64,000 bases of DNA from Rhizaria sp. SCN 62-66 (Eukaryota), in contig MEDY01000103.1 in NCBI GenBank assembly GCA_001724265.1, forward strand, positions 1 through 64,000, in the 5' to 3' direction. The first letter of the stretch is position 1, and every line of letters starts with the position of its first letter. Below, piece after piece: positions 29,801-49,094 of this stretch. Below the pieces are notes generated by a model that ran no database searches, was not told the origin of the DNA, and worked only from the letters and a program-made list of their open reading frames with translations. The position numbers and the translations under genes were made by a program.

Positions 29801-32800
29801 GCCTCCTCAGCGCGCGTGGCATTCGCAGCAGCCTCAGCAAGCGCAGTCTTGGCAGTCTTGAGCGCCTGGCGCTGCGCAGTGACCTCGTCACGAAGCTCTT
29901 CGAGCTCCTCTTCGCCGGCGGCCGCGGACCAGCCCGCCGTAGCAGCGGAGGCCTGCTGCGCGGCGGTCAACTCGGCCTCGAGACGGCTGCTGCGCGTCGT
30001 GGCGCGCTCGCGCTCGCGCGACAGAGTCACCTCAGTGTTGGCGCGCTCCTCGCTTGCGAGCTCGGCCGCAACTGCGGACTGGCGAGCCTCGGTGCGCGCG
30101 GCGCCCAGCTGCGGCAGCAGCGCGTCTGTCTCAGCAACCGCAGCCTCGGCGCGGGCAACAGCCTTGTCGCGCTCCTCAGTGACGGCCTTAAGCTGCTGCT
30201 GCTGCGCCTGGACAAGCTCGTCGGTCGAGCCCTCGGCAACGGCAGCAAGAGAAGCCTCAAGCTCCGCAAGGCGCGCGGTGGCGTGCGCTACACGGGCCTT
30301 CTCCTCCTGAGTCGCGGCGCGAGCGCGCTGAGCCTGACTGATCTGCTCCTCGGCACGGGCCTCAGCGCCCGCAGCGGCAACAGTAGCAGCGGTGCTCGCG
30401 GCGCGCGCGGTCGTAGCAGCCTCCTCGGCAGCCGTGGCGTCGGCACGGGCCTCCTCACGGAGCTTCTCGGCAGTCGCCAGCGCGGCCTGCGTAGCAGCAG
30501 CGGTCGCCTCGGCGGTCGCGAGAGCGCGAGAAAGCGTAGAGACGCGCTCACGCAGCGTGGCCTCGCGCTTCTCAGCCTCAGCAGCGTCGTTGTTCTCCTC
30601 GTCATCGAAGCCATCACTGTCACCAGCGCCAGATGCAGTACCACGGGCCAGTGCGGCACGGGCGCGGGTGCCGTTGAGCTCGCCCTGAAGGCGCTCAACC
30701 TCAGCCTCAGCACGCTGCACGGCCTTAGCGCCGTCCGCCACAGCCGCATCACGAGCCTGCTCGGCAAGCGAAGCGGCCACAGACGACCGCTTGTGCGCAG
30801 CGTTGGCCTCAGCCTCTGCGGTGCGCGCAGCCTCGCTCTTTTCAGCCGCGGCAGCAGCACGAGCAACAGCAGCATCACGCTCCGCAGTGAGAGACTTGAG
30901 CTGAGCCAGCTGAGCCTGAACAAGCTCGTCGGTGGAGCCTTCAGACACTGTCTGCAGCGAGGCCTCAAGGGCCGCGACACGCGAGGCAGCCTCTGCAGCA
31001 GCCTCGTCAGCCTTGGCACGGGCCTCGTTGGCGAGATCACAAGCCGCAGCGGCGGCCGCGGCGCGCGCTTCAGCGTCAGCGCAAGCCGTCTTGCTTTCGG
31101 ATACGGTGGCACGTTCAGCGTCAAGCTTCGCGTGAGCCTCGGCAGCATCCTCCTCAGCCGCAGCGCAGCTATGCTTCATGTTGGCGAGCGAGGTCTCAGC
31201 CGCGGCAAGGTCAGCAGCGACGACATCGCGCTCCGACTGCGCGGTTGCAGCAGAACGGCGGAGCTCGGCAATACGGCGGTAAAGGCTCTCAGTAGGGTCC
31301 TCCTCCTCAAGGGTAGCAACAGCAGCAGATGCAGCAGACTCGACGCCATCAGCAGAATGCTCGTCAGAAACGACGGCAGGTGAGACGTCATCGATCGAGA
31401 CACCAGCAGGAGTAGCAACAGCAGCACTCGAGGGGCGCGCAAGAGCCTTCTGAAGCTCGGCCTGCAGGCGCTCGCGCTCATCCTCTGCGCGGCGCAGCTT
31501 GGCAGCCAGCGCAGCGGTCTCATCCCCAGCGTTGATGTTCGCGATGCGGTGCGTGGCGTCGGCCTGGGCGGCGCTCGCGCGCGCGTCAGCGGCAGCAGCC
31601 AGCGCAGCCTCGCGTTCAGCCTCGGCATCGGTAGCGCGCTGGCGGGCCAGGTCACGCTCGGCAGTCACGGACGCGATCTGATCGCGCTGTGCCTGAACCA
31701 GCTCGTCCGTGGAGCCCTGCGCGACAGCCTGCAGCGACGCCTCGAGCGCAGCCACGCGCTCTGTGGCAGCGCCCAGATCCGCGACGGCCTGCTCCTTACT
31801 CGCCTCGGCACGCGCAGTAGTCTCGACAGCAGCGGCGGCCTTGACCTCGGTCGCAGCGCTCTCGCCGGCAGAGCCAGCGCGGGCGCTCGTCTCGGCGGCC
31901 AGACGCTCACGGAGAGCGGCAGCCTCCGCCTCGGCTGCCTCACGGGCACTCTCGGCAGAAGCGCGCTCAGCTTCCTTGGTCGCAGCAGCAGCCTCAGCAG
32001 CGGCAGCTGCGGAACGCAGCGACGCAAGCTTAGCAACCAGAGCGTCCATCTCATCCACGGCAGCAGTCGAATCAGAGACAGTCGTAGGCAAGTGAGACTC
32101 AGAAGCGGGCGCAGCTGATGAAGCAGCGGCAGCAGTCGCAGCGGCAACTTCAGTCGCGTCTGCGCCAGCAGACACGGCAGCGGCCGTAGCAGCAGCGGTG
32201 GCGGCGCGAGCAGCGGCGAGCTCGCCCGTGAGACGCTCGTTCTCGGCATCGGCACGCGCGATGCGGGCCGCGGCGTCGTTCTGCGCCTGCTTACTAGCGG
32301 CCTGGGCGTCCTCCGCGTCAGCAGCGGCCTTGCGGGCCTCTGCACGGGCAGCATCGGCCTCCGCGGCAGCCTTCTCGGCGGCCGCAGTGCTCTCAGCAGC
32401 ACGCTCGCGCTCAGCGTTGCGCTCCTCGGTGAGCGCAGCCAACTGCTGCTTCTGCGCCAGCACGAGCGCATCCGTAGAGCCCTCCGCAGCGGCGGCCAGC
32501 GCGGCCTCCAGCTCGGCAGAGCGCTCGCGGGCGGCCTCCAGGTCCGCAGCAGCGCGGGCCGCAGCGGCCTGCGCGGCGCTAGCCTGCTGGCTCGCCTCCT
32601 CGGTCGCGGCAGCGAGATCAGCGGCGGCGCGCTCGGTGATACGCTGCTCACGGGCGGCGGCGGCAGCAGCAGCCTCGGCAGCCTCGGCGGCGACCGAGTC
32701 GGCCTGCGCGGTGGCGGCGGCAAGCTCGGACTTGAGCTCGTCGCGCGAAATCATCGCAGCAGCCGCGGCAGCGGCAGAGCTAGCGGCGGCCTCCTCACGG

Positions 32801-35800
32801 GCGGCCTCTGCAAGCTCAGCAGTGGCTTCAGCCTTCTTAGCGTTAGCGCCAGCCTCGTGGGCGTCAGCCTTGGCAGTCTCAGCCTCGGCCTCTGCGGCGC
32901 GCGCGCGCTCGACAGCAGCGTCGCGCTCCGTGGTGAGAGCTTTGATCTGCGCAAGCTGCGCAGTCACAATCTCGTCCGTGGAACCCTCAGCAACAGTCTG
33001 CAGCGAGGTCTCCAGCTCACGTGCGCGCGCTTCAGCAGCAGCAAGGTCGGTGTCGGCCTGAGCACGAGCGGCACGGAGGCGCTCAGCCTCGGCGTCCGCG
33101 GACTCAGCGCGCGCGGTGGCGTCGGCGGCAGAAGCAAGAGCGGCGTCCAACGCGGCCTTGGTCTCAGCAGCAGCAGCCCCAGCGGCGGCAGCACGCGCCA
33201 CAGCGGCGTTGAGAGCTTCCTCGTCGACGACGGTGACGATAGAGCTCGACGCGGATGCATGCACAGGAGCCGTGTTCTCATGCGACGAGTGCACGGCAGA
33301 CACAGCGCTGATCGGGGCAGCGAGTGCGGTAGCAGCGAGGTCGGCGCGAGCCTTCTCGAGTGCCGCCTCGGCCTCCGCAGCAGCAGCCACAGCGGCGTCC
33401 TTCTCAGCCTCGAAGCGCGCGTTCTCAGCGCCAGCTTCGTCACGCGCGCGCAGCGCCTCAGCAGCCTCAGCCTGGCTCTCTTCAGCACGCGCACGCGCGG
33501 CATCGCGCTCTGCGGCGACCTCCTTGAGCTGCGCGGCCTGCGCGGCAACGACGGCGTCGGTAGAGCCCTCTGTGGCGGCAGTCAGCGACTGTTCCAGCGC
33601 CGCCACCCGCGCAACTGCGGCCGCAGCGTCAGCGTCAGCACGGTCCTTGGCGGCGTTGGCGCGCTCGGCGTCGCTCAGAGCAGCCTCGGTGCGTGCAGCG
33701 GCCTCCGCCGCAGCGGCACGGGCCTCGGCTGCCTCCCTGCGTGCTTCCACAGCCTCGCTGCGTGCAGCGTCAGTCTCAGCAGCAGCGGCGGCGAGAGCGG
33801 CGCGCGCGGCCTCCTCAGAAGCAGCGCGGTCAGCGTCGCCCGCACCGGCAGCGGCGGCCGCGGTTTCAGTGGCGGCGGCGGCAGCAGCAGCGGCCTTAGC
33901 GTGCGCAACCTTCTCGGCGCTCAGCTCCTCGGCAAGCGCGGCCTCGCGATCCTCGGCAGCGGCCAGACTGGCAGCCGCAGCGTCGCGCTCCTCGCTCAGT
34001 GCCTTCAGCTGCGCGCGCTGCGCCTGCACCAGCTCGTCGGTGCTGCCCTCGGCGGCCGCAGCGAGGGACTCCTCCATCTCGCGCGCACGCGCCTGTGCCA
34101 GCGCGGCAGTCTCGTCAGCGCGCGCCTTGATCTCGAGCATGCGCTCACGGTCACTGGCAGCGGCAGCGAGCTGCGCCTCCATCGCAGCCGTCGTCAGACG
34201 CAGCGAAGACAGCTCGGCGGCGTGATCAGCAGCCTGTGTAGCCAGAGTAGACCGCAGCGACGCGATCTCCGCAGCAGCCGCGGCAGCCGCAGCGGCGTGC
34301 GCGGCGGCCGAGTCAGACACGGGCGCGGCGTCGGCAGGCTTCTTGGTGTTAAGCGCGGTGGTCACGGCGGCGATGGCCGCGGCCTCGACGGCATCGGCGC
34401 GCGCAATGACGGTGCCCGAGTCCTCCTTGCTCTCCTCGCTGTCCGCAGGCGGGCGCCACGAGGGCAGTTCGGAGGCGGTCTGGGCGACGCGCGCGTCAGA
34501 GGCGCGCTGCACCCAGTCAAGTGCGGCGGTGGCGCGCGACAGGCGCTGCGTAAGCGCTCGCACACGGGCCTCCGCGGCACGGTCCTGCTGGGCGGCGGTC
34601 GCAGCAGCTGCGGCGGCTGAAGCAGCAGCGGCGTCGGCTGCGGCCTTGGCGGCAGAGATCTCAGCCCTAGCGGCGGCAGCCTCATCCTGAGAAGTCTTCA
34701 TCGCGGCCTTGACGGCATCAATATCAGCCTTTGATGCCGCGGCATCAGCCTTGGCAGCATCAGCGTCGGCCTTGGCAGCGTCAGCAGCGGCCTTTGCAGC
34801 AGCAACCTCGGCCTTGGCAGCGGCAGCAGCTTCGGCACCGGAGGTGCCCGCAGCAGCAGCCTTCTCAGCATCGGCCTTGGCTTTCGCGGCCTCATCCTTC
34901 GCGGCAGCGGCCTCGGCCTTCGCAGCGGCGACCTGGGCCTCGCTGTCGCGCGCCTTGGCCTCGGCCGACTCGACCTGCGTCGCGGCGGCGGCCAGCGCGG
35001 CCTTAGCGCCCTGCAGCTCAGACTGCGCGGCATCGCGGGCGCGCTCGACCTCTGCGCGCGCCGAGTCGGTCGCGGCGCGGGCCGACTCGGCGGCGTCCTT
35101 GGCGGCTGACGCCGCGGCGAGGGCGTCCGACACGCGCGCCAAGTCGCTGCGCGCGGCAGCGGCCTGCGTCTCGAGCTCGGCCACGCGCGCGGACATGGCG
35201 TCAGCACGCGCGCGCTCGTCCATGCCGGCACTGGCAGCGGCAGCGGCGGCAGCAGTGGCGGCCTCCGCCTGAGCGCGCGCGACGGCGGCGGCAAGGGAGG
35301 CGTTCTCGCCCGCCAGACGGTCCTTGGCAGCAGCCAGGTCAACCTTCTCGGTGCCCAGTGCAGCACACTGCGCGGAGAGCATCGTCACCTGCTCCTGCAG
35401 AGCAGCCTCGCGCGCCGTCAACGCCGACACGCGCGCCTGGAGCTCGCTGTCGACAGAGTTGCCGCCGTAGCTAAGCCCGGCAGCGGGCGAGTGCGCGGGC
35501 GCGTGCGCGGGGGACGAAGGGGGGAAGGCCGAGGACGGCGCACGTGCAGAGTGCTGCGGCGAGCGCGGCGAGAACTGCGGCTGGTAGGGGTCCGCGTCGA
35601 AACTGGCGCCCGGGGAGGCTGGGGCGACAGGGTACGAGTCATAGGTCGGCGAGCGTGGCTTGCGGTGCGGCGACTGGGGCGCGGCGTTGAGCTCGCCGCG
35701 GTCGATCTGCTCCTGCAGCACGACGGAGCGCGCGCGCGGAGGTGGCGGCATCGACACGCCCGCGCGCTCGAGGCGCTGGCGCGTCTCTTCGTTGTACTTG

Positions 35801-36459
35801 TCAACCTGCGTCTGCAGGCGCGACACAAGTGAGCGCGACTCGGCGATCGCGCCGGCGGCGGCAAGCTCGCGCTGCGACAGCGAACCGTCGTTGGCAGCAG
35901 CGGCGGCGGCGGCAGCGGCCGCAGAGGTGCCGCGGGCGGAGAGAGGGCCGCCAAAGGAGGAGGTTGCGGAGCCGGCGACGGGCGCCACGGGCTCCTCTGA
36001 GTAGGCAACCGAGAGCACGAGTGCGGGCGGTGCGGGCGACGTGGCGGCGGCAGCCATCGCGGCGGCCACCTCGCGTTCGCTCTTGGACACTGGAGCGGGC
36101 TCGAGACGCAGCATGATGGGCGCCCCAGCCTTGCCAGCGGCAGCGAGGCGCGAGACCGGCACAGAGACGGAGGCGATCAAGATGCGGCTGTTTGTAATAG
36201 AAGAGCGGCCCTGAACGGCAAAGACGACCGTGGCCGAGGGCGTAGAAGCATTGAACTTCAACTTGGTCGAAAACTTAACGGAGATACGAGGAGGGCCACC
36301 GCCACCACGTGAAGGCACGGGGGGCTGCAGGGGCTTGCGCTCGGTCTCGGCCGCGACAACAGAGTCAAGCGCGGCCATAAGCGAGAGCGTGGACACTGAT
36401 GCCACATGGGGGAGGTCCTTGCATGCGACGATGCAGGACAGTCCGCTTAACGCGCTCAT
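17845..36459 (-). CDS. Giant 6204-aa single-exon coiled-coil protein: N-terminal C2-like domain, 22 motif repeats, Ser/Pro-rich tail
   Basis: An 18.6-kb uninterrupted ORF with A/E/R heptad composition. The N-terminus 'CIVACKDLP...ETERK...KFSTKLKF...VVFAV...ILIASVSVPVSRL' resembles a C2 beta-sandwich. In-frame stops lie upstream of the ATG. Stop TAA. Confidence 0.9.
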   Translation of the reverse strand: MSALSGLSCIVACKDLPHVASVSTLSLMAALDSVVAAETERKPLQPPVPSRGGGGPPRISVKFSTKLKFNASTPSATVVFAVQGRSSITNSRILIASVSVPVSRLAAAGKAGAPIMLRLEPAPVSKSEREVAAAMAAAATSPAPPALVLSVAYSEEPVAPVAGSATSSFGGPLSARGTSAAAAAAAAAANDGSLSQRELAAAGAIAESRSLVSRLQTQVDKYNEETRQRLERAGVSMPPPPRARSVVLQEQIDRGELNAAPQSPHRKPRSPTYDSYPVAPASPGASFDADPYQPQFSPRSPQHSARAPSSAFPPSSPAHAPAHSPAAGLSYGGNSVDSELQARVSALTAREAALQEQVTMLSAQCAALGTEKVDLAAAKDRLAGENASLAAAVARAQAEAATAAAAAAASAGMDERARADAMSARVAELETQAAAARSDLARVSDALAAASAAKDAAESARAATDSARAEVERARDAAQSELQGAKAALAAAATQVESAEAKARDSEAQVAAAKAEAAAAKDEAAKAKADAEKAAAAGTSGAEAAAAAKAEVAAAKAAADAAKADADAAKADAAASKADIDAVKAAMKTSQDEAAAARAEISAAKAAADAAAASAAAAAATAAQQDRAAEARVRALTQRLSRATAALDWVQRASDARVAQTASELPSWRPPADSEESKEDSGTVIARADAVEAAAIAAVTTALNTKKPADAAPVSDSAAAHAAAAAAAAAEIASLRSTLATQAADHAAELSSLRLTTAAMEAQLAAAASDRERMLEIKARADETAALAQARAREMEESLAAAAEGSTDELVQAQRAQLKALSEERDAAAASLAAAEDREAALAEELSAEKVAHAKAAAAAAAATETAAAAAGAGDADRAASEEAARAALAAAAAETDAARSEAVEARREAAEARAAAAEAAARTEAALSDAERANAAKDRADADAAAAVARVAALEQSLTAATEGSTDAVVAAQAAQLKEVAAERDAARARAEESQAEAAEALRARDEAGAENARFEAEKDAAVAAAAEAEAALEKARADLAATALAAPISAVSAVHSSHENTAPVHASASSSIVTVVDEEALNAAVARAAAAGAAAAETKAALDAALASAADATARAESADAEAERLRAARAQADTDLAAAEARARELETSLQTVAEGSTDEIVTAQLAQIKALTTERDAAVERARAAEAEAETAKADAHEAGANAKKAEATAELAEAAREEAAASSAAAAAAAMISRDELKSELAAATAQADSVAAEAAEAAAAAAAREQRITERAAADLAAATEEASQQASAAQAAAARAAADLEAARERSAELEAALAAAAEGSTDALVLAQKQQLAALTEERNAERERAAESTAAAEKAAAEADAARAEARKAAADAEDAQAASKQAQNDAAARIARADAENERLTGELAAARAATAAATAAAVSAGADATEVAAATAAAASSAAPASESHLPTTVSDSTAAVDEMDALVAKLASLRSAAAAAEAAAATKEAERASAESAREAAEAEAAALRERLAAETSARAGSAGESAATEVKAAAAVETTARAEASKEQAVADLGAATERVAALEASLQAVAQGSTDELVQAQRDQIASVTAERDLARQRATDAEAEREAALAAAADARASAAQADATHRIANINAGDETAALAAKLRRAEDERERLQAELQKALARPSSAAVATPAGVSIDDVSPAVVSDEHSADGVESAASAAVATLEEEDPTESLYRRIAELRRSAATAQSERDVVAADLAAAETSLANMKHSCAAAEEDAAEAHAKLDAERATVSESKTACADAEARAAAAAAACDLANEARAKADEAAAEAASRVAALEASLQTVSEGSTDELVQAQLAQLKSLTAERDAAVARAAAAAEKSEAARTAEAEANAAHKRSSVAASLAEQARDAAVADGAKAVQRAEAEVERLQGELNGTRARAALARGTASGAGDSDGFDDEENNDAAEAEKREATLRERVSTLSRALATAEATAAATQAALATAEKLREEARADATAAEEAATTARAASTAATVAAAGAEARAEEQISQAQRARAATQEEKARVAHATARLAELEASLAAVAEGSTDELVQAQQQQLKAVTEERDKAVARAEAAVAETDALLPQLGAARTEARQSAVAAELASEERANTEVTLSRERERATTRSSRLEAELTAAQQASAATAGWSAAAGEEELEELRDEVTAQRQALKTAKTALAEAAANATRAEEAASAADRARARAEEDADDLRTKLSAAQASVAETSVARADAEARAEAAEAAAARAATAQSTAEEDKTAAIARVATLETAITTVAEGSTDELVQAQLQQLAAVKEERDTARVRVAESEAEAAELRERNGDALAAQRRAETAAAVAEEARKAAAAEAEARESRALAECERLEAELAEARAAAAAVGAVASVASNKSAAAVALPDDAAAADEVPVDAISADAATAESATRAADGEKPAKEGVKPAVVAAAVAGGVVVGAIGGALLARRRGSKQDADSKESATTAAEDAVAAADEHAANDNADVAALRARAAAASKELAAANAALARSKAAAAVAESSRAAAESAREEAEEDADDLRTRLNTERGSRIDALQKLAAAEARADALSTASERAEAARAQAEADVTAARARVASLEASLAAVAAGTTDELVQAQQTQLAAVQEERDTAQSRAATAETEVTTARAEAAEAAVAVKAATAATTLANETRAAEAQEATERLEKAVAARAALQEELTAARESVAAASVSNAAAAGSISAEEATALKQELATARERLAAATQAHATAASEAATASSELAAAVRARDVNAADSAEARERLEAERAAHGALKAEAAGLRARDETATEEAARLTAAKTKAEDAATAAQARVAALEASLAAVAAGSTDELVQAQQEQLKAVIAERDAARADVTASEEAVATANETVATERATAAESTAKAQAVEAARAAEEDEHKSEAARARAEIEHLQSQLASALAATAAAAVVTTSDQNSEADAEALREKIASLRESMVTATAAAAASAADAAAAQAATDAAERASAAAELEASELREKLSAERNAAVELRTAAAEAEARAEASASERARLLAAKEQAELDAEAATARVAELEASLAAVAEGSTDELVQAQLAQIKAVSEERDAARKRVSELEPALEAATVSADEARVDANKHEAAAEAAVAASKAAAEDAAAAKGRTDSEIERLEGELAAARAAAASDAVASAMTAASGAAVSSNEVNELEAKVKALKEQRNALKVSVAESASALVLAEANSAAATRAKEVAETEATDAREKLCAAREEATAQRVIAAEAEVHIAAAAEEKERLIVAKAQAEADLTASRERVSELEASLNAVAEGSTDEIVQAQLAQIKALTEERDAARTRTSELQAEADTATAAADDARVAAARAEATVAAAVDAEKAAVEATTTIKERAAADIERLEAELSAARAMAASGAVANATAGASASSDEVAELEAKIKALKEQRATQNVAYAEAAAALVAAETEAENAHRARVTAEEQAATAEAKLLAERESTALQRAVTAEAEARAAAAVDEKDRLMSGKQLAEAEMYSARARVAELEADLNAVAEGSTDELVQAQLRQVRALTCERDGARERVAELQSEVDSANADADNARVAAARAEATAESRSEAEKAATEAAAAAKERYTAEIAHLESELATARGMVASGAAAGVAGGLGITAEEVEELENKIKALKEQRATLNAAAAEAAAAIVTAEATAEAAMRARAAAEEEATAANEKLVAEREAGAALRTAAAEAEVRATSATEEKERAVAAKAQAEEDAAAAIARVAALEASLAAVAEGSTNELVIAQQEQVKAVTEERDTARERVAELQTEVETVTVAADEARMAVARAESAAEASAEAEKAAVTALAENKERAAAEVERLETELAEVKAHAPADGAATGSTGSDEEIAELEAKVKSLKEQRNALKVAAAEAAAELAKSEAAVEAATRARTAAEEDAAETREKLTAEREAAAMLRSEAAEAEARATAATEDKDRMAGSNAQAEEDLTAARERVAELEASLQTVAEGSTDELVQAQLAQIKAVSAERDTARERVAALEQEVETSASAAGELRVTIARAEADVIAAKEAESVAVQQFTQTKEQATQDVARLEAELAEARADTAKAEAKADAPAGDDDEDAKEAVSAEKAAAITAAATAAATAARAEAEAALADAVRRRDAAETEASEARARAEELRTAATDAEAASAAAQVRCEALEEKAARATEAKQEAENTADAATERVRELEASLAAVAEGSTDELVQAQQQQIKAATEERDAALERVRARSDEVDELHAAAEELKITVARAEASAAAASEAEQTAHADATAAKERADSEIATLEQQLAAARAATTAATVANVTAVAAAHGEENNADAELRAKLSDALIAAAQAEAAREAADRARSRAEEDAATANIELTAEREAAAALRADAAERDARAEAAAAEHARLTAAKEQTEADYEAALVRLAELEASLNTVAEGSTDELVQAQLAQIKALTEERDTARERAAESAQQLEEANAAADEARVAVARSEAVVEAATEAEKTAVQDAANAKERADAEIKRLEEEVAAARSATAAATAAGAAVAAGGLAENDYSTVTIARLRERISERDAAAADAAADLATAQAATAAAVRARTAAEEEAAAANEKLESERAEAAELRTAAAEAAAAAEVAAQEKERLTAAKAQADEDVEGARTRVAELEASLAAVAEGSTDELVQAQLAQIKAVTEERDAARERVATAEQEAADAHTKADEAAVNVARAEAAAEAAAAAEKQATEDAESAKERAATEIARLEEELASARVAAAAATATAETATEAAAEAKADAEAAEAEVKADGDDEDEKPVAASAAVAAAERARAEAEAEVASLRERLAADREAHAETAVEVATLRARAETDAETRTHLTEAKERADADLAAAQERVTALEASLASIAEGSTDELVQAQQEQIRAVTEERDAARERVAALDAELASEREARAEAAANVAQAEASATAATEARTVAEAELAEAREQTEQRRSEEAASAASAAETADKIAELQTALGAARADAAAAEARQEAAETARTEAVDDATKLREQLEQEHTAATEARVAAAGAEAARESAAAEAERARADAERTSEELAAARERMAELEASLNSVAEGSTDELVQAQLAQIKAITEERDGARERIAEIEAEAAAAHTAADEARASAKQAELAAQVATEERDAATENAEREATTSAARVEALQEEILQLRTAAATASATEEPAMTMADPDDADGPAVHDGAEASVECAAPASAEGAKDGDAADEGATDAEKDDAKKDDAAEMTLEEARVALAAVERAREYAAEEAEVAQTALAAERAEAAERALAAVALEQEAAARAAEAERAEESARLAREELVATVQRARVLEDSLNSVAEGSTDELVQAQLVRIRALTEERDSSRDRVTELEEKVAACHAEADELRLAAARAEAEAEAARSRVEAENAEREAERKRVAERQQKLEDEIKENSKKEEATSDADSAAAVARAEAVAETAERARAAAEEDANETREKLEAERAAHAETKGLRAAGEAEAEVLRDERERLVEAKQRSDEAAEAAHARVCELEASLAAVAEGSTDELVQAQQQQLKAVTEERDKARERSSELEEQLTALHTTCDEERVARRKAEADASSAEDARAAAAEAQTAAETEQKRLEEENASLRASAAEAEARAAADVKKRTDEDSKGLSLRIPTDDSPAVLGGIVTEPYSVSRHAPPPPAAPVQITIRVDTATASCRDCPGLTAQLARTAADLSIANSDAARHTRAAAAAAEEAAALRERCDKAESALESMAAQSDDERLATVARELAAVREERDSTLKRAVAAEEAKDDAESSLISARAEAEAVAAEAAAAAAAQRAELAQRVADLEADVAATREALAQARSRVGPDGRMEESLTEESLAALLSPTMGSEGAAAAAAGRQTAAEEEKDMSEEAKAMAEDAKCDVATLCKRLAALRAELRIARRRITALEQALRNGPLALGLAHGTSIHPFFRTQRAGSIAGPQSPHVAPRVNEALKEAQDKILEAERKRLGKGARAQRPIGVSGFAIPLSPMVSARSRGSISGGTPLSSSLASASSSDIFSFPTAMLDGKGGGNMTPRGSVAMTPRGSVVMPNAPVVDASDPSRPRMPVPLLIRSSTLAGSNAGSTTASPMARPRESPMSPAAAALASPSVNRSGSIIVLPPTNAPGSPGMRSRRTDSITSALGVLNE
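19030..34100 (-). repeat. Intragenic repeat array: 22 copies plus 1 degenerate copy of RVAELEASLAAVAEGSTDELVQAQLAQIKAVTEERD
   Basis: Counted in the translation. Copies lie near 34050, 33565, 32985, 32480, 31715, 30935, 30225, 29545, 28550, 27855, 27170, 26470, 25775, 25085, 24400, 23720, 23060, 22370, 21700, 21100, 20335 and 19745, with a degenerate copy near 19090. Confidence 0.9.
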
Positions 36460-37051: not shown

Positions 37052-38299
37052 CCTCTGACAGATATTGGTTTTGTTCTCTTTGCTTCGTAGAACGCGCCGA
37101 CAACTACATAGGTCTGTAAATAAGCTGTACTATCGTTTTTTTGCACGTTACCTATTTGTAACGTGCATATATTACATGTGCAACTCGGTGTAACCCATAT
37201 GTGGTCAGGCAGTTCAATCAAGTGGGAGGCGCCACTCCCAGAAATGCGCACTTCGACCCGTCTAGACAACGCAACCAATGTCAACATGTCCCGTCGTTAA
37301 TCAGATAGCACATGATGTGTAAAATTAACGCGTGTGACATGTTCTATCCGCTAGTGCTTCTTGCTGTGACGGCATAGACGTTCTTCGGACTCAGTCGTAG
37401 CGAGGACAACCGTTACACATTCATGATCACGCATCTGAGACGCTGCTCTAACGATCGTGATGTGAAGATTCCAAAAACGCGTGTGTCGGCACACGTTGAT
37501 GTCAAAATAAGATTAACGTGATAGATCAGCTTGGATACCTGCAATGCATCGTGCTAGCCTGCAGAAGAAGCAGGGACAAATGGCAAACATCATCAAAGCA
37601 TGGACAAACTACGGTTGCAATTGTCCTTAACAATCTTTGGTGCATGTTTACTATATGTATCATGTAGATATATTCAACACCTAATGTATATTTCTGTAAT
37701 GCAACTCCGCTCAAATATGATGCATGTATCTATGACGATATACTCAGAATGTTTCTTTATTTTCATGTTTTATCTTGGTATATGGCTGCGTGGTGAAATA
37801 AAATTATGGAGATCGAAAATAGTAGTGTACATGAAACAACATATCTCAATTTCAACGTGCATCAATTTGAATAAAGCTCAGATCTACCTTGAAGAAGCAG
37901 TATTTCGACTTGTGCATCGGAGAGTGCAGCCGCCTGAAGACGAAAAGTGAGCAACGCTCGCGAAGTGGACTGACATACACACATCCGTGTGATTCAAATG
38001 TGAATGTGGTCATGGTGATTTGTCTTGAAAATTCGTTGTGTCCTTGTAATTACATTTCATTACGACTTTATTTGAAGGTCTCTGTTCTGTTTTTTCTCGC
38101 GGCTGATCGGCGAGTGCAAACTTGCTCCGTTCGACCCTTGCTCACGAGCTCCCCCCTACTCCGTCGTTCAACAATATCCTGCAGAAGCGCTTTTTTTAGT
38201 ATATCTTTGTCTTTTCTTGGGCTCGTACCCCCTTGAGTCGCCCTCCAACCCGTCTCCGGCCGCGTTGCAAGGGCCCCGCACACCCCGCGCCGTAGCGCC

Positions 38300-41200
38300 A
38301 TGGGTAGCGGCCAGAGTCGCGAGGAGGTGAACTCCCACTCCTCCAACAGCAAATGGCGTTCCCCTGTCATCGGCCTCCCGAACGTGACATCTCTGTCCGT
38401 TGCTGTGCGTGACCCTCCTCCATTAGTGGCGCCAGCTAAGGGCCTGTTCGCGCGCTTCCGCAACCGCAATAACGATGGCATTCTGCCAACGGGTCCCGCG
38501 GCCGCGTCTTGCTTCGCGCCGCCCGAAGGCGCCATCATCGGCGTTGACTGGTCCGTGCTCGATCTTGCCGAGCTGCAGGCCACCGCCACCGCGCCACCTC
38601 TTGCGCCGCTACGCCGCCACGACCGCAGACGCTGGCGCAACAGATCCGACGACGACCGCAACGGCGGCGGCGGCGGCGACGACGACGGCGACGTGAGCAC
38701 CGACAGCGCCTTCTCCGACGGCGCGCCCCGCAGCCACGGTGACGACGACTCGGCCGCGGCGGACACGAGCGATAGCGACAGCAGCGCGGGCGACTGCGAC
38801 GACGACATCGACGACGGCGACGCCGCCGACGCCGAGGACTTGGAGTCGGTGCACACCGTCATCGTGCTGGGCCAGGCGTGCGCGGGCAAGTCCACGCTCG
38901 TGAAGCAGTTCATCCGCTTCTTCGGCCCAGGCTTCCCCGCGCTCGCGCGTCTGAGCTTTGCGCCCGTGGTACGGCGCAACCTGGTCTTCACGGCGCAGGG
39001 GCTGCTGCACTGCGCGCTGCAGCTCCACCTGCGCGGTCTGCGCGACTTCCGCATCCACCCGAGCGTCCTGCCCGCTGCGGCGCGCGTGTGCGCCATCCAC
39101 CCCTCGGGTGACGTGCTCACGGCGGCCGACGCCGCGGCGCTGGCTGCTATCTGGCAGGCCCCCGCGCTGCAGCGCGCGCTGCTGCTGCAGACGGCCTTCT
39201 TCCGCTCGCTCGCCGCCACGCTGCTGCCCGCGGCGGAGCGGCTCTGCGCGGTCGACTACCTGCCTACGGTCACGGACGCCATCACGACGTACGAGCCGAC
39301 AGTGGGCGTGAACATTGTCGCGCCCGCCGTCGTGCTCTCGCGGCCCTCGCGCGCCGAGATCGCCGCCGCCGCCGCGCTGGGGCTCGCCGCCGCGCTCGCG
39401 CCCGCCGCCGCGGCCGCCGCGTCGCTGCACCGCGCCGGCGCCGCTGCGCACCCGCTGTTGGCGCTCGCCGCCGGGGACGTCTTCCACACCGGGCTTGCTA
39501 ACGTAGCCACACTCGCGCCGTGGTCGCCCTTCAGCGCCACGCCCGGCAGCGGCTTCTTGCAGCAGCAACAGGAACAACAGCAGCATCAGCAAGCGCAGAC
39601 GCTGTCTTCGGGCGCGGGCGCTGGGATTAGCGCGGGCGCACGGGGGCTCAATCTGGGTTTGACCGGCGGCATGCCTGTGCCTCCGACGGCGCAGCAGAAG
39701 CTTAACGCGTCATTCTCGGCCACGGTCGTCGCCGCTGCGGCCGCCGCCGAAGAGGCCGCCGCCGCCGCGGCCGAGGCCGCCGAACTCTCGGGCTACCCGG
39801 GCGACTTGTCTCTGGCCAACACGAGCGCCGCGGGGGCCGGGCCGCTCAACTTCCCGTACCAGAACTACCTGGCTGTGTGCGCCGCGGCCGCGCAACACGG
39901 CTTCCCCGCGGGCAGCATTGACGACGACGACGGCAGCGTGCTCTTCTCGCCCGCTACGCTCGCCGGCGCGCGCAGCGCGGGCGCGACGCCGCTTGCCGGC
40001 GGCGCGGGCGCAGGCGCACAGGCGCTGGCGGCCGGCGCGGCCGCGGGCGCGGCCGCGGGCGCGGCCGCAGGCGCGCCGCGGCAGCTGGTGCAGGAGGCGC
40101 TCGCGGGGCAGATCGCGACCAAGGTCGAGCGCGACCTGTTCCTGGGCGACGACGCGCCCGTTGTTGCCGCCGTGCGGAGCATGATTCAACTGCAACAGAA
40201 ACAACAGAAGCAACAGCAACAGCGGGCGTACGGCCCTGCGCCGCCCGCACTTGCCCGTGGTCAGAGCCTGGGTTCGCCGGCGCTTGCCACGCCAGGCAGC
40301 GCCGAAACCGGTTACGTGGCAACGCCTGGCAGTGCTAGCGGCATCGGTGCGTCCACAGGCTTTGTGTCGCCCAACAACGGCGGCTCCAGCAAAGTCAACT
40401 TCGCCGGCGTGGCCCCGCGTCGCCGCAAGCGCCGCCGCCGCCGCGCCGCGCCGCCACTGACGCTGCGGCTGATGGACACGGGCGGCGGTGCGCTGTAGCG
40501 GCCCAAGTCGCACGCGCTGCTGCCCGACGCGCAGTGCGTGGTGTTTGTGGCCGCGCTGGACGAGTACGACGAGCCGTGGGAGGAGCGTCCCGCGGTGACG
40601 AAGTTGCAGGCCGCGATCGAGGCCTTCGGCGAAGTGTACCAGCTGCACTCGAGCAAGGGCACGCCCGTACTGCTCGTGCTCAGCAAGGCCGACGCACTCG
40701 CGCGCAAGCTCGCGCTCGTCCCGCTGGCCACGCGCTACCCCGAGTACGCAGCCTTCAAGCAGGCCGCCATGGCCGGGGTCGAGCAGGCCGAGGCCACGGC
40801 CGCTGCTGTTGTGGCCGCCGAGGCTGCTGCGGCGAGCAGCGGTGACAATGTGTTGCCGCATATGGCGGCGGCACCCACGGTCAGCGCTGGGCCCGGCGTC
40901 ACCGTCAGCAGCAGCTTTGCGCACTCCGCCTCGCTCACTGGCGCCAGCGCGACTGCCAACGCGCGCGCAGGCACTGGTGAACGCGGAAGCATCGCCTTGC
41001 TGCATACACGTCCTACAGCATACTCAGTCCCGCTTGCAAACGTTGGCGAGCAGTCGCCTGACTCCGTGACGGGCGGCGTTGCCGGTGGCGCGGGGCCGGC
41101 CGCGCAGGACTCGGCCGTGGCCAAGCCGATGCTGTCCCCGCTGCCCGCTGTAGCGCGCGGGCTCGCGCGCTCTGTGGACGAAGGCACTCTTGGCGCCCTG

Positions 41201-44200
41201 CCCAACTCGCAGTCCCAGCCGCCCATGCGCTCACTGCTTTCCGCATCCGCATCGTCAACGGCCGAGGATATGTTCCGTGGCCCGTCGCCGCACGCTCCTG
41301 CGCACTCGCCCAGCAGCATTGTCTCGGGCGAAGAGCCTGTAGAGAGCGGCAGCGGCAGCGGCAGCGCGGCGTCTAATGCGCTTACGGGTGAGCGTCCTGT
41401 CATTAGCGGGTCCACATCCGCTGCGCAAAGCCACCCATACGCGCGTTCGTTGATGCCCGCGGCGCCGCTAGCTTTTGCCGATGAGGCATATCTTTTCGGC
41501 GCGCCCAGCTCGGCGGCGCTTGACTCAGTTGTCGCGGCTAGAGTCGAGGCAAACAACAACGGCGACCCCTTTGCGGCTAGTCTCGCCGGCATGGGCAATA
41601 TGGGCGGTGCGTTCCTGCATACCAACGCGGGCGACGTGCTGGGCGGTGCGGACGGACATGCGGCGGCCGCGATCGAGGCGAGTGTCGTCGAAGCGTTGCA
41701 ACAGTCAGCTTCGGGTAGCGCGAGCGGTGGCAGCGGCTCTGGGCGCGACAGCAGTGGTGCCGACAGTGAGGACGAAAACGACGATGATGATCGCGCTCAA
41801 CACATCAGCTACGGCCGCAGTGGCGCTCGGAGAGGCGCCGGCCGTGGCGCGCAGCCCGGTTCGCCGTCGGGCTCCTTCTCGTCTGTATCGACCTCCGCGA
41901 TGTCGTCCTCGTCAGACTCTGCCAGCTTGGTTCCTGCGGAGGGGCAAACGTCGTCGCTGCATCAGCCCGCGGCGGGTCGCCTGACGGGGTCGCCTGGACT
42001 GGGCCCCGTTTTGCGCTGGGCACACGGGGCGCTGGACCCTGCCGCCGCGGCCGCCGCTCAGGAGGCCGGCGTCGACCTCGCCGCCGCGGCCGCCGCGCTT
42101 CCGTTTCTGCGCGAGCGCCGCCGCGCGATGCTCAAGCGCAGGCGTTCGCGCGCGGTCCAGGCCCATGCGAAGGTTGTGGCGGCGGCGGCGGCGGAGGCCG
42201 CTGGACAGCCGCCGATGTCGCGCGCGACGCGGGACAAGCACAAGATGCAGCGCCAGGCGCAACAGCAGGCGCAACTCCAACTCATAAGCCCTGGGCTGCT
42301 GCAGCAGTCTCCGCCGGACCAGCGCCGGCAGTCGCTGAGCAAGCCCAGCCACCACTATAGCACGAGCGGCCATCGTCATGCCGACGGTCATCAGAGCAAA
42401 AAATACGACTCCGGGCATAAGCAGAGTCACAGTCGCAGCCAGAATCAAAGTCGCAGTCATAGTCACCGCGACGCCGACTTCGACTCCCCGCAGCAGCGCA
42501 GCGAGATTAACTCGCGGCGCGGGGGCCGCTCAGTCGCAGCTTCGGCGAATCCAACGCCGCCGCTGCCTCCCGTGCCTGCTGTCGTCAACGCCAACGTTGC
42601 CACGAAAGAGGGCGGCGACTCGATCACGAACCCGCCGATGCTGGTGACGACGTACACGGTTGAGGACGGCTTGGGGCGCTTATCGTCGCCAGTGCTTTAC
42701 GCCAACGGTGGCGGCGGCAGCAGCACGGGCCTGGACCGCTCCAACACCAGCGCGGTGCCGTTCTCGTCCGACGACCTGGTCATGGGCAGCCCCGGCGTGC
42801 GCGCGCCGCCGCCGCGCCAGGCGCACATCTCGCTCGACGCACCACCGCTGTTGCCGCCGACAGCGCCTGTGCGCCCGGCATTCGAGGTTACGCCGCCAGT
42901 GCTTCGGTCCATGTCCGGCATCGCTCCCGGGCGCCCGGGCAGCACCGACGACGGCTCGCGTGCCGACACTTACGACGGCGACAACTTGGTGAGTCACCAT
43001 GACCACAACAGCTTTCGCGACGATCAAAGCGTTCATCAGGGCGAGAGACTCGAATCCAGCGGCGGCGACGACGACCACTTCGGCGACAACGAAGAGGAGG
43101 AGGACGACCGCATGCCAGCGGCTGAAGGCTCGTTGGACGCGTCAAATGCACTTGTGACGCATATGCCATCGGCGCCTGTTCCCACGTCGCCTGTCCGCCT
43201 TGCGGGGGCGTTAGGTGGACGTGGCTTCACCGCAAATGCGGGCTTTTTCACACCGCCACCACCGCTCTCTAGTGCCCCAACCTCTATCGGCACAACATCA
43301 CGCTTCTTGTCGCCACCGCCCGTCATGTCGGGGCGCACTGTGTCACAGACCGGACCTCAGTCCTCGTTATCGCCGCGCGGCGCCGCTTTCACAGCTGCTG
43401 CGGGCACAATACCGTCGCCGGTTCGCATGACGTCGCACCAGTCGGCGCAGCAGCTTTTCGTCCCACCTCTCTCGCGCCAGTCATCGAACGCGCTGCTTGT
43501 CGGCACGCCCGTGTGGAGCCGTCTCGTGGCGTCGGCCTCCGCCGCATCAGGAATCGGTCGCAGCGCAGCCGTCATTCCTGGTGCAGCCGCCAGCAAGAAT
43601 GTGCGTAAGGCCAGTGGATTGCCCCCACTCGCGCCGTCGCCGTCGCACTCTGCGTCTGCGACACCCGCGCCCGGCGCGATGGTTGCCATTACCGGCGCGC
43701 CCACGCCGCCCGCCGGCCGCGTCGGTTCCGCGGGCTCGGCCGAGTCCTTCGGCGCGCGCACGCCGTCGCCGCACGTGCCTGGTTCGCCCGCGTCTTCGGG
43801 ACCGCCTGTGGGATCGGTGCTCCACCAGTTGCAGCAGCATCAACTGCTGCAGCAGCAGAAGCAGCACGGCCCCGCGGCAACGCAGGCACAGCTTGCGCTG
43901 ATGCACTCGGGCCAAGCCCCCGGTGCAGACTTTCCTTCGCTTGAGAGCCCTGTGTCGGCAAGCGGCTGGACGAGCGCAGTCGTTCGCGTCGGGCCGCTCT
44001 CCGCCAACCCCGGTGGTGTTGCTGGCAATGAACAGCTGACGCGGTCGGGCAGCCTCGGCTTACTCGCGCCCGGCGGCGCCGACGTGGCGACAGCGCTTAG
44101 CGCGGCTTCAGGCAGCATCAACGCTGTGACGCCGTCAGGTCACGTCATCCGCCATGGCAGTCTGGGCAATGTGCAGCAGCTGCTGCGGCACCAGCTATCG

Positions 44201-47200
44201 TCCCAAGCGCCGCCGGCATGGCTGATGCAGCGTCTGCCATCGTTGGCCAACCTCGCCGCTGCGCCATCTACCGGCGTTGCGCCGGGTGGGGTGCCCAACG
44301 CGCACTCGCTCGCGAGCTCCGGTGTGGCGGGTGGGCCCTCGGCAATGCTCGCAGCGGGCTCTCTTGTGGGACCTGGCACGCACCACTTCTTCGGCAGTGG
44401 CCCGCCCGGAAGCACCAATGCTAGCGGCGCTGGCGGACAACGTTTCCGACGCGCTACAGGCGGAACAGGACTGCACACGCACAACTCAGGTCTTCCCTCT
44501 GTGGGCGGCAGTCCGCAAGGCTCGCCGATGTATGAAGCTCGCCGATTGCGCTCGCGCCATGGCACAGGCACGCCGACGCTACTGGTAACGCCGCCGCCGG
44601 GCGGGAACGCCGCTCCGCAGCCGCTTCCGCTGCTCACAAGCCACCCTCCGATTCACAACCACGCTCCCGGCCTGAGTCAAAGCCAGAGCCAGATGTTGAT
44701 CCACAGTCAGGGACAAGGACAACTTGTGAACTACAGTCCAACGCCAGGCCAGTCTGTGCCTGTTGTGGGCATGCCCACGCACGTTGGCTCCGACCTTGGT
44801 TCCGGGCGGCGCCCGCGCGACCGCGAGAGTCCCTTGCCGCCGCGACCGCCCCGGGACCCCGATTCAGTCACGCTGCGCAACGGCTTGACTCTGACCGGCC
44901 CGCGGAGCGCCATGGTGCGCGAGCTCAAGGGCAACGACCAGGGCGACGGCTCCAGCAGCGGCAGCGGTGACGCGGGCGGCACGCGCTCGGGATCGGGCTC
45001 GGGCTCGGGCAACGGCAGTAGCGCGAGCAGCAGCGTGGCCCCGACGCGGCACCTGACGCCCGCGGACCGCGACGACGCGTTCGGCGACAGCGAGGACGAG
45101 GACGACTTCGAACTAGGTGGAAGCGGCAGCGAGAGTGGCGGCTTGGAGTGGGAAAAGGCACATGAGCGCCGAGTGCTTCTGCACGCGCTCAAGCGCGCCT
45201 ACATGGCTGCTTGCTCGCAGACAATGATGCTGCAACCGCAGATTGAGCGCGCGAAGAACGAGATGGCCCTTGCGCAGTCGCGCCGCTCGAACCCTGCACG
45301 CGGTGGCGCGGGCCGCGCAGCCGGAAGCCGCGACGGCAACAAGAGTGACTCTGATGACTCGCTGGCTTCTGGTATGTCGTCCGCAACCGCGGCCTCTGGT
45401 GGCTACGGCCGCGATGACCGGGCCAGCGGCGCGACGGCAGCGCTGCCCGGGGCGCTTGTGGTGGCTGGTGCGCCCCCTAAGGACGAAGCGCCGCCCCGCA
45501 AGCTGAAAGTCGCGGTGCGGCGCCTCATCGTTCCCATGCGTGGCGGCCTGCGCTTTCGTGTCGCGCGTGGGCCACTGCCAGTGCCTTCTCGCAGTCAGCT
45601 TGAGCGCGAGGACGCTGAGCGGGTCGAGCGCAAGCGCAGGCGCCGCGAGCGCCTGCGTGGGCGCGCCCGTGATCAGCAACAAATTGGCTCCATCGATGAG
45701 AACCAGCTCTCAAACCACCGCTACCACCACCATTACCACCGGCACCACGACCGCGACCACGAGCTTGAGCGCGAGCGCGAGCGCGAGCGCGAGCGCGAGA
45801 CCGCTTTCGCCCGCGCGCGTGGAAGCTGGGGGCGCGAGTCGAGCGTGGTTCTCTTTTCGGCGTCTGCGGACGGGGCTTCGCGGCCTAGTTCGCAGCTGAG
45901 CCAGAGCGGGTCTTCGACCACTACCAGTGGTAGTGAAAGTGGCAGTGACAGCAACGTGCGCTCTGGTCGGTCCAGTGAAGCCGACCGCTCGCGTTCACGC
46001 TCGCGCTCGCGCTCGCGCTCGCACCTCGGTGGCGCCGGCGCTAGTCGTAACGGCAACCGGAGTGGTGCCAGCGACTACGACAGCGGCAGCGACAGTGGCG
46101 GCAGCGGTGTTGCGTTCGGCGTTTCCCGTCGCTCGATGCTCGTCGTCTCCGGCCTGGGTCCCGACGGAGAGCCGATCCTGCGCCACGGGCGCGAGACCTG
46201 GCACCGGCCGCACCAGCAGGTCGTTTCGCTCCTGCGTCGCCGCAACGCCACAGCTGCTGCAGGTGCCGACGGCGCCGCTGGTTCTGACAGCCGTTCTCGC
46301 CGAGCCAACAGGCACAGCTCGCATGCGAACTCTGGCGAGCTCAGCGCGCGCACTTACGCATCTGCAGCGCCCTCGGGCGTCAGCAGCGCCAGTCGCAGCT
46401 CTGCCAGCCTCCACATGCGCCAGTCGCGGCGCCGCGGCAGCACGACCGGCGGCGTCGGCGCCGCGGGTACGCGCGACTACCGGTCGCGGACCATCAGCGA
46501 CATGCCTCTGCCTCAACGCGGGCTGCTGTTGTCAGCGACGATGGGCGATGCGCGCGGGAGCATGGAAGTGCCGACGCCCTCGAACAGCGGCCACCACGAC
46601 GATTCGCACCGTCGGCACGCGTTTGGACAGCGCCAGACAACGACGGCATCGGCCGTGAGCGCTGGACATCGCCGCTCCCCTGCAGGCACTACTGGGACGG
46701 GGACTCCGCCGAAGCCCGACCGCGGCGACAACGACGACAACAACGACAACAACGACGATGACGACGGCGACGGTGAAGAGGACACGACGAGCGAGGTGAG
46801 CAGCCAGCATAGCATGGACCGGTTGCGCGCGGTGGAGGCCTACGACGCCTGTGGACTGCTCGACGGCGACGACGGCGACGAAACCGACAACAGTGACGCC
46901 AGCAGCGCCGTCAGTGAGCACACCATCGGCGGCTTTCTGCTGCCAGGACCGCGCTCCGCGAGCGCAGGCATGATCCGTGCGCTCTCGCGCCGCCAGTGCG
47001 ACCGCCCCAACTGCCGTCGTTGCTCGCGCCTGTCGCCGCTGGAGTCAGACGCTGGCGACCCTGCGGCTGACGCTGCAGCCGCGGACTACGCGGCGACCGT
47101 AGCCGCGGCCGCAGCCGCCGCAGCCGAGGCCGCTGCGATCGCAATCGCGACCAAGGAGGCGCCGTACGCCGCGCTCTTCATCCGTGAGCTCTTCTGGTCT

Positions 47201-48514
47201 AAGGTGCGCGCCGAGGGCGTGTCTGTGCGCGCCGAGTCCGCTATTCTGCTGCCGCCCGAGGGCAGCGCCGCACACGGCCACAACCGCGGCATCGACATCT
47301 ACAACCGCGGTCTTTCCGCCGCTGCATCCGCCTCGACAGGCGGCGTGTCCAACGGCTCTTCCGCACTGCTCACGCACCTGGGTTTCGGCGCCGCCGGCGC
47401 TGCGGGCGCGCCGCTGCAGCGGGACATGGACGCGCTTGGTGTGTGGGGCCTCTCGCCCTCGCTCACCGCGGCCGCCGCGGCTGCCGCGAGCGCTGCCACA
47501 GCGGTCGCCGTCGGTGCGTCCATTTCCTTCGCGTCGCAGCCGCGGCTGGGTAACGCCTTCGACCTGGCCCCGCTTGCGCCCATCTCGGCCGCCTCGGCTG
47601 CGGCCGCGGCCGCGGCGGGCGCGGGTGCGGGCGGATACTCGGCGGCGACGCTGAGTCTGAGCCAGCGCCACTCACTCGTGACGTCGCTGTGGCGCACGTC
47701 CGACGTCCTCGCCATCGCCAACAGGCTCTACACGATGCTCGCCGAAGCCGCGGCCGCGCGCGCGCGCGCCGCAATGAGGGCGACGTCTGCGCCCGCCGGC
47801 ACCGCGGCAGCTGCGGCCGCGGCGATCGCGGCCGCGGGCGTGGGCTCCGGCGCTGACGTGATGGCCGCGATCTGGGGCGACAAGGCGGCCATCCCGGCCT
47901 CGCTCGCTGCCTTTGCGGCCGACGGTGAAAAGGCGGCTGCCGCGGCTACGGGCGCAAGTGCGAGCACTGGCGCGGGCGCGGGCGTGGGCGTCAGCGGAGA
48001 GGGCCGTGAGCGCAGGACTCGCAGTGAGCGGCGCATCGGCGGCGACAAGCGCGACAAAGACAAAGATAAAGACAAGGACGGCGGCAAGGAGTCTGGCAAG
48101 CACAGGGACAATGATGGCGACCGCGAGCGCGACAAGGACAAGGACCGGGACAAGGAGCGCGAGAGGGACCGGAGCGGGTCGCGGCGCAAACGACTGCCGC
48201 TGGTGGTCGAGGGCGACCAAGATGAGTCGGCCCGGGTTTCACCCTCCGCCGCGGCTGCAGCGGCCACGGCGGCGGCGACCGGCAGCGGCGCCGATGGCCC
48301 CCGTGAGTCGCCCTCGGCGCTGTCCTCGATGTCGGCGACCACAGCGGTGACCGCGACAACGACGGCAACGGCGGCGACCGCGGCGACAGGAACGTTTCGC
48401 CGGAACAGCACTGCGGGCACGTCGTTGACGCACGCGGCGAAGCAGCGGGTCCGACGCGGGCCAGACGGTGAAATTGAACTTGCTGTGATGGTTGAGCATG
48501 CTCCTGTGGTGTGA
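38300..48514 (+). CDS. Extra-large, divergent heterotrimeric G-protein alpha-like protein (3404 aa if the in-frame TAG at 40496-40498 is decoded)
   Basis: MGSGQS myristoylation-type start; G1 GQACAGKST; helical-domain remnants 'VRRNL' and 'AAALAAIWQAPALQ'; 'DYLPTVTDAITTYEPTVGV' (G2); 'LRLMDTGGGAL*RPKS...VVFVAALDEYD' (G3/switch II); 'TPVLLVLSKAD..ARKL...PLATRYPEY' (G4); later 'AALFIRELF' and 'HSLVTSLWRTSDVLAIANRLYTML'. ORFs 38300-40498 and 40538-48514 share one frame. Final stop TGA. Confidence 0.8.
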
Positions 48515-49094
48515 ACTTAAAGGACCGGTGAGTGAATTGGACAACAGTGTGAGCTTAACACAAGATTGCTCTGTCTAATAGTTGTTCATGTTCCAGAACT
48601 AACACAATCCAGATGGGTTATTGGTGCGATACTTTAGTCGAACTACTTTTTATATTACATAGTGTGAATTGCGTGCGTTTTTATGTGCCCTATTAAAACA
48701 ACTCACTTAAAGCGTTCATGCAAATTTGCTTTACCATTGTTACCTACATCATCTATACAAAGTCTTACTTTTCAGTCAGCTCGATCACAATATAAATGAC
48801 AATTGCAAAATTGAGCGTATATCCGCAGCAATGTTAACAGTAAAATGATTTTGTGTTGTTTGACTTAGAACGGTCTTGCTTTAAGTGCGAATGTCTCGGA
48901 AAACGGTTGTTACCACAAATGCTGCTCGGAAGATTGGGGGAAGCAGTCCAAAGCGAAAGTGATGAGCAGCAAAATCTCGATATCTCGGGGTGCTAAATCC
49001 GTCGAGCAGATCCTGCAGCAAGAGTGCAGGGGTTAATTGTAGTTTTCTCTACGTTGGCTAATTTATAGTTCTTGAGAACTTTATTCAAGAGCAT

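Follow-up and report, generated by a model that had tools for sequence, protein, structure and literature searches.

The stretch of DNA analysed here (the window) comprises 64,000 nucleotides (nt) of contig MEDY01000103.1 from Rhizaria sp. SCN 62-66 and carries a gene for a giant, divergent G-alpha-like protein whose reading frame is interrupted by a single in-frame TAG. The stop falls within switch II of the G domain, at a position where G-alpha proteins have a Glu, and is followed directly by a rare CGG codon and a predicted RNA hairpin. The best single reading of these features, to which we give a probability of about 0.4, is that of a recent nonsense substitution whose effect is partly relieved by context-stimulated readthrough.

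A TAG codon within switch II of a giant G-alpha-like gene

The + strand frame from 38237 to 48514 contains no stop other than the TAG at 40496–40498, which lies in the sequence ...CTG TAG CGG CCC AAG... (the base after the TAG is thus C) and divides the frame into two parts of the same phase, 38237–40498 (753 codons) and 40499–48514 (2671 codons). Translation from the ATG at 38300 gives 732 amino acids with termination at the TAG and 3404 when the codon is read, and apart from the TAG the remaining 3403 codons hold no lesion. Because about 2% of random codons would be stops at a guanine plus cytosine (GC) content of ~70%, around 50 would be expected in 2671 codons by our own arithmetic, and their complete absence means that the open downstream frame is not a product of chance. 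Coding stretches in the window have a GC content of ~70% and spacers of ~50%, and a scan of GC at third codon positions along the frame reveals no step at the TAG. The stop-to-stop frames and the translation agree with an initial annotation of this DNA, which had described the TAG as the only stop in its frame, the short and full forms as 732 and 3404 residues long and some 2670 codons as open after the stop; that description was right in all the details we checked. One relative of the same layout was found (P0103/P0151, at locus L001), and it is used below to place the C-terminal part of the domain. The features of the gene are as follows.

38300–48514, + strand: giant divergent G-alpha-like gene, single exon, 3404 codons, with one TAG inside and a TGA end at 48512–48514 (open reading frame lists, Pfam matches on both sides of the TAG and three collinear BLASTP matches to P0151)
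38870–38896, + strand: G1 or P-loop, GQACAGKST, residues 191–199 (G-alpha chain and profile alignments)
39290–39310, + strand: switch I, YEPTVGV, residues 331–337, Thr kept and Tyr at the Arg finger position
39323–40444, + strand: Ala/Gln-rich low-complexity insert of ~375 codons running from switch I to G3 (translation; gap between the two Pfam stretches)
40475–40489, + strand: G3, DTGGG, residues 726–730, DxxG kept and Gly at the catalytic Gln position
40496–40498, + strand: the TAG itself (codon 733), at the switch II position whose consensus is Glu, with CGG next; present in the contigs of runs X1 and X4
40682–40693, + strand: G4, SKAD, residues 795–798, 62 codons after the TAG (alignments, profile and BLASTP)
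40769–40771, + strand: nearest downstream in-frame ATG, 91 codons from the TAG and past G4
47165–47215, + strand: C-terminal conserved stretch YAALFIRELFWSKVRAE, residues 2956–2972 (BLASTP E 0.006), collinear with the P0151 stretch that precedes its G5-like end

Read through the TAG, the product matches the Pfam G-alpha family (PF00503) with 101.9 bits, above the cut-off of 48.8. The upstream part (residues 170–338 against profile positions 7–174) gives 44.9 bits, which alone is below the cut-off, and the stretch directly after the TAG matches positions 204–283 with 48.9 bits. We also aligned solved G-alpha chains, of which 4fid_A from the PDB was the best, and built a G-alpha profile of our own from 113 G-alpha matches. 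In both 4fid_A and the 113-sequence profile the stop aligns without gaps to the switch II Glu, and Pfam, the chain alignments and the profile all carry the G-alpha homology past the TAG through G4, so that both of these points made in the initial annotation are borne out. The conserved G3–G4 stretch cannot be made from an internal AUG because the first ATG after the TAG lies beyond G4; with homology on both sides of the stop and no ATG for 91 codons, this stretch is useless unless the stop is read.

Splicing offers no escape from the stop. An intron that removes the TAG, which the initial annotation had named as a refutation, was considered and is rejected because the flanks of the codon align gap-free to G-alpha and because this region, at ~70% GC, is unlike the one intron located in the window.

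The protein shares with the G-alpha family the P-loop (GxxxxGK[ST]), the helical domain (residues 170–338), the switch I Thr, DxxG, xKxD and an N-terminal MG, and its first residues, MGSGQS, resemble a myristoylation signal. In G-alpha proteins the switch I Arg and the Gln of DxxGQ are catalytic. Here a Tyr occupies the switch I position that we take to be that of the Arg finger, a Gly stands in place of the Gln, and G4 has lost the Asn of NKxD while keeping its Lys and Asp; lacking these three residues, the protein is, as judged from its sequence, G-alpha-like rather than a working G-alpha. It differs from the family further in that two inserts, of ~375 and ~2100 residues, split the domain, the second being the low-complexity sequence of ~2100 codons after G4. 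The G domain thus appears to be spread across the whole 3404-codon frame, its C-terminal part being placed by one 18-residue BLASTP match to P0151; in the last 671 residues neither Pfam (E up to 10) nor our own profile gave a match to G5 or the C-terminal helix. Plant extra-large G proteins are likewise oversized, catalytically weakened forms of G-alpha.

The relative P0151 has YEPSHGI in switch I, a G3 without Gln, LSKID at G4 and inserts at the same two places, and it too lacks the catalytic Arg and Gln. BLASTP between P0151 and the read-through protein gives three collinear matches (E 1e-14, 3e-18 and 0.006), the C-terminal region of P0151 matches positions 293–337 of our profile weakly (E 0.11), and its predicted (Atlas) model aligns to G-alpha models over residues 4–867 with a template modelling score of 0.85 on the target. 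The two genes (38300–48514 in the window and 9715–12604 in L001) delineate a small G-alpha-like subfamily. Its proteins have YEP-x-x-G in switch I and xSKxD at G4 where NKxD is usual, lack the catalytic Arg and Gln, and are extended by long disordered inserts behind switch I and behind G4; the two forms have 3404 and ~910 residues, and only one relative was found among 1.84 billion representatives. Locus L001 has a GC content of 52.7% and an intron in the P-loop; here the TAA of the G-alpha-like gene abuts the TAG (− strand) that ends a convergent frame of 3331 codons (12602–12607), without a spacer.

Searches for closer orthologues returned none. HMMER against the 1.84 billion representatives gave 1014 matches, none with E ≤1e-30, the best being an ordinary G-alpha (84 bits, 35% identity). 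Word-based searches found no orthologue either with residues 150–900 (lengths 1872–5957), where low-complexity words probably swamped the result, or with the 100 residues that follow the TAG (lengths 1469–4675), and a search of JGI metagenome contigs with 129 residues around the TAG produced 600 pattern matches of which 0 were confirmed. These negatives are weak, because both G-alpha-like frames of the window themselves appeared in no protein search. The V-ATPase B subunit encoded in the window, unlike the G-alpha-like frames, apparently belongs to one of the 90% clusters in the protein collection.

The TAG in assembled DNA and RNA

The source is a metagenome and the organism an uncultured eukaryote, and the runs that hold the window sequence are labelled bioreactor and wastewater. 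Four runs were compared over 37500–49500, all of them as contigs, a form in which rare variants are dropped and heterozygous bubbles popped; the small-share runs X6–X18 were not used as evidence. In run X1, possibly the source sample, a second assembly yielded a 15327-nt contig of depth 35 that covers 40048–49500 with 0 differences and contains the TAG. A 979-nt contig of depth 4 from run X4, which belongs to a different study, covers 40459–41390, again with 0 differences, and has 37 letters before the TAG. A single base in a metagenome assembly may always be an artefact, and the initial annotation had allowed for one; because the TAG is present in two assemblies from two studies, however, a base-call error is unlikely and the codon is a true genomic stop. 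We give hardly any weight to sequencing or assembly error as an explanation.

Position 43724 is polymorphic (G/A, Gly to Ser at residue 1809), the A being the minor allele in X1 (depth 13.2 of 48.5) and the sole allele in X4, i.e. two strains or alleles of the organism are present. The TAG is found on both 43724 alleles, and the stop is therefore older than that polymorphism. Over the whole gene the samples differ at five positions (two synonymous, three non-synonymous), too few to read selection.

The codon that is translated might still differ from the one assembled, either because a heterozygous or minor-strain sense allele is hidden by the consensus or because the RNA is edited, e.g. by an A-to-I change giving UGG. 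Editing of the A-to-I type corrects stops in fungi. The loss of rare variants from contigs speaks for a hidden allele, as does the fact that X1 does hold two alleles at 43724, but at 40496 neither X1 (depth 35) nor X4 shows an alternative contig, although the comparison did report the variant at 43724. As for editing, no RNA contig lies over the site among those listed, and the A falls outside the predicted stem described below. We regard a difference of this kind between the assembled and the translated codon as unlikely.

The RNA evidence comes from run X11.

42052–48422, + strand: poly(A) RNA contigs, at least eight listed, with 0–1 differences, all on the downstream frame

Carry-over of DNA into this library is possible. 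An established pseudogene would be marked by multiple lesions or lost transcription; this gene has a single stop, and poly(A) RNA contigs lie on its downstream frame. A very young pseudogene may nevertheless be compatible with a frame that holds only one lesion.

Context of the stop, predicted hairpin and competing explanations

The hexanucleotide TAG-CGG is of the leaky type, with C at +4 and CGG (CUA being the other such triplet) after the stop. Among ten genes of the window CGG is a rare Arg codon (95 of 1170, against 770 for CGC), and the 11 genuine stops have G (5), A (3) or T (3) at +4 and never C. The sequence that follows is predicted to fold.

40498–40554, + strand: predicted RNA hairpin of 24 base pairs (bp) with a 5-nt loop; the lower stem starts from the G of the TAG and the upper stem (at least 12 bp) from 40509, 10 nt after the stop

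The minimum free energy of the 62-nt segment containing the hairpin is −38.1 kcal/mol. Only 1 of 200 dinucleotide shuffles was as stable (z −3.34), as were 2 of 2000 synonymous randomisations in which the peptide and the codon usage of the gene were kept (mean −22.2, standard deviation 5.0). Compared with other segments of the G-alpha-like gene, the raw free energy is matched by 64 of 3384 and the GC-adjusted value by 2 of 3384; among codon-aligned segments of the ten genes, 162 of 15427 are as stable in raw energy, and in those with a GC content of 0.66–0.76 the count is 5 of 8678, which includes the segment itself and one overlapping neighbour. The folds after the 11 genuine stops range from −3.2 to −19.6, and the homologue P0151/L001, which has GAA at the equivalent codon, forms no hairpin at that place (z +0.55). 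The pairs of the lower stem are partly supplied by the rare codons CGG and TTT (TTT makes up 52 of 227 Phe codons). A rare leaky context together with a hairpin of a strength seen at ~0.1–1% of positions is a coincidence that is hard to dismiss.

These data suggest how the rescue could work. A single substitution in a GAG or CAG codon at the Glu/Gln position of switch II would be the most likely origin of the TAG. A stable stem-loop would stand at the mRNA entrance of the ribosome while the stop occupies the A site, and a near-cognate tRNA would then read UAG in a useful fraction of ribosomes, so that some full-length protein is made. Most ribosomes would stop after 732 residues, and their product would be no working GTPase. 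Readthrough at such a level could keep the downstream frame under selection, and in a gene still under selection the nonsense changes that persist should lie disproportionately often at leaky sites. The initial annotation had noted the C as a generally leaky context and had concluded that the codon is decoded; the first point is strengthened by the rarity of CGG, the absence of C at +4 from the 11 genuine stops and the 3′ hairpin, whereas decoding itself is an inference and a recent nonsense mutation is almost as likely.

In this alternative, a plain loss-of-function allele, a recent GAG- or CAG-to-TAG change knocked the gene out or left a 732-residue stump with only background leak; the downstream frame would be intact for want of time, and the hairpin and the CGG would be a coincidence. 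We consider it quite possible, if short of an even chance. Nonsense alleles are far commoner than recoding in the middle of a domain, and a TAG one base from Glu and Gln codons is what such an allele would be expected to show, the homologue having GAA; 675 of the 30627 single-base changes possible in the frame (2.2%) create a stop. Constraint on the protein may also be weak, given that it has neither the Arg finger nor the catalytic Gln and is swollen by low-complexity inserts, and with only five differences between samples, three of which are non-synonymous, the stop may be so recent that further decay has had no time to accumulate. The fold, too, is unremarkable once the upstream context is included. 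On the other hand, a dead allele requires the hairpin coincidence of ~0.1–1% in addition to the rare CGG (8%) and a C at +4 that is found at 0 of 11 genuine stops. It must also account for the recurrence of the stop in two studies and with either allele at 43724, and, more weakly, for poly(A) RNA contigs that still lie on the downstream part despite the 8-kb 3′ untranslated region that a dead allele implies.

Several observations weigh against readthrough as the explanation. A stop in mid-motif, one base from the expected Glu/Gln codon, looks like a random nonsense mutation, and the known programmed sites sit at C-termini or between domains. With diversity so low, a dead allele of recent origin should have an intact downstream frame as well. 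The 62-nt segment was fixed after the hairpin had been seen, and when 60 nt of GC-rich upstream sequence are added the fold is ordinary (z −0.31, 71 of 200 shuffles as good). An alternative hairpin at 40479–40526, also of −38.1 kcal/mol and with the TAG in its apical part, competes if the upstream sequence is free. The lower stem begins at the stop itself and not after the usual 7–9 nt. The homologue at L001 has GAA at the position equivalent to the TAG, and the searches described above, weak as their negatives are given that they also missed the window's own frames, gave no orthologue that might show a conserved stop or compensatory changes in the stem. Among the X11 contigs listed no RNA contig extends over the TAG. 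Finally, the CGG-type signals that have been described mostly use UGA (PMC3159437), and here the stop is UAG.

A different class of explanation is that UAG is no dedicated terminator in this lineage, being reassigned, read by a suppressor tRNA or dependent on context, and rare as a sense codon; the TAG of the G-alpha-like gene would then be a normal Glu/Gln codon, in an early code change of a GC-rich genome. This has some appeal, as the 11 credible gene ends in the window comprise six TAA and five TGA but no TAG, and the best named relatives of the V-ATPase B subunit are only 75–79% identical. Nuclear codes with rare or position-dependent stop/sense codons have also been published (PMC6394959, PMC4967479). 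A reassigned UAG should nonetheless occur many times, and the 15617 codons of ten genes contain no in-frame stop but this one, with the V-ATPase B, aldehyde dehydrogenase, Obg and peroxiredoxin genes free of any. By our own arithmetic a count of 0 of 11 arises ~5–7% of the time if TAG ends a fifth to a quarter of genes. Scans of the window for tRNA genes and Rfam families found nothing, so that no tRNA gene lies within it, nor does the window include eRF1. What looks like a further in-frame TAG, ahead of the Obg domain, forms the 3′ terminus of an ordinary GT..AG intron. On balance an altered meaning of UAG is improbable.

That second in-frame TAG, at 55241–55243, was also considered as a candidate in its own right and rejected, as it is the end of the 55131–55243 intron.

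Neighbouring genes and comparison with known systems

The genes of the window lie on both strands and change strand often; together with the presence of introns, this led us to reject a trypanosomatid origin. The V-ATPase B subunit (5585–7084, − strand) has relatives that are 94%, 84% and 82% identical, and the named ones, at 75–79%, come from Paulinella, Lapot, Spongospora, Colponema and oomycetes. The 113-nt intron (55131–55243) of the Obg-like GTPase gene has GT..AG ends, is low in GC and is pyrimidine-rich; exon 1 of this gene, which begins with the ATG at 54938, resembles a targeting peptide. A dCTP-deaminase-like gene (8518–10053, + strand) falls into two frames, between which the central part of the Pfam profile is absent, probably owing to one or more introns. 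On the − strand, 17845–36459 is an uninterrupted frame of 6204 codons with a TAA end, encoding an Ala/Glu-rich, coiled-coil-like protein with ...AAAEGSTDE.V.AQ..Q.K... repeats. Three of the six TAA ends (4569–4574; 5582–5587, − strand; 63514–63519) read TAAGTG and two more read TAAGTT and TAAGCG, a pattern that may mark a strong termination signal favoured by the organism.

The arrangement at the G-alpha-like TAG can be set beside several known systems. A stop followed by CGG and, after a spacer of 7–9 nt, by a stem of at least 12 bp is a described stimulator of readthrough, and type II viral signals, found in alphaviruses and in tobra-, peclu-, furo- and pomoviruses, consist of stop-CGG or stop-CUA with an extended 3′ stem-loop (PMC3159437). 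The present site has in common with these the CGG after the stop, a GC-rich stem of at least 12 bp downstream within coding sequence and a long open frame. It differs in having UAG where UGA is usual, a lower stem that begins directly at the stop and an upper stem that follows after 10 nt and not 7–9; moreover, the gene is cellular, its stop interrupts a domain motif and does not separate protein modules, and the site is known from sequence alone.

Cellular parallels exist in Drosophila, where 3′ stem-loops drive readthrough of kelch and of dfr/vvl. Like these, the G-alpha-like gene is cellular and has a long open frame after the stop and a predicted 3′ stem-loop, and dfr shares the UAG. In the Drosophila genes, however, the first frame by itself yields a complete, functional protein and different species share the stop, whereas the first frame here encodes half a G domain. 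With a young unitary pseudogene or a segregating nonsense allele the gene shares one premature stop, one base from sense, with the rest intact, but the leak-prone context seen here is unexpected at a random site. The nuclear reassignments of ciliates, Blastocrithidia and Amoebophrya are similar in placing UAG at Glu/Gln positions, and in the window no gene ends in TAG; they have many in-frame stops, in contrast to one in 15617 codons here. The ‘RT genes’ of Trichomonas (bioRxiv 10.64898/2026.08.31.748405) likewise involve an intron-poor protist and adjacent, stop-separated frames proposed to form one protein; that proposal concerns ~1400 loci and is based on long RNA reads, whereas here there is one locus, with no listed RNA contig across the stop. 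It is the nearest case that we met. A limited literature search, implying no absence from print, brought up among the papers listed none on a protist G-alpha gene that is read through or carries an in-frame stop.

As a mechanism, context-stimulated readthrough of this TAG would be a cellular member of the known class of stop-CGG with a 3′ stem, its odd feature being the position in a catalytic motif. The protein is of interest separately, as a 3404-residue G-alpha-like protein with no catalytic Arg or Gln and a G domain split by huge disordered inserts. Should the TAG prove to mark only a young knock-out allele, the finding is an ordinary one. Readthrough, by contrast, would make this a cellular gene, in a free-living protist, that relies on recoding within a catalytic motif, and would widen the known range of the stop-CGG and stem-loop logic of RNA viruses and a few insect genes by a compact, 60-nt element.

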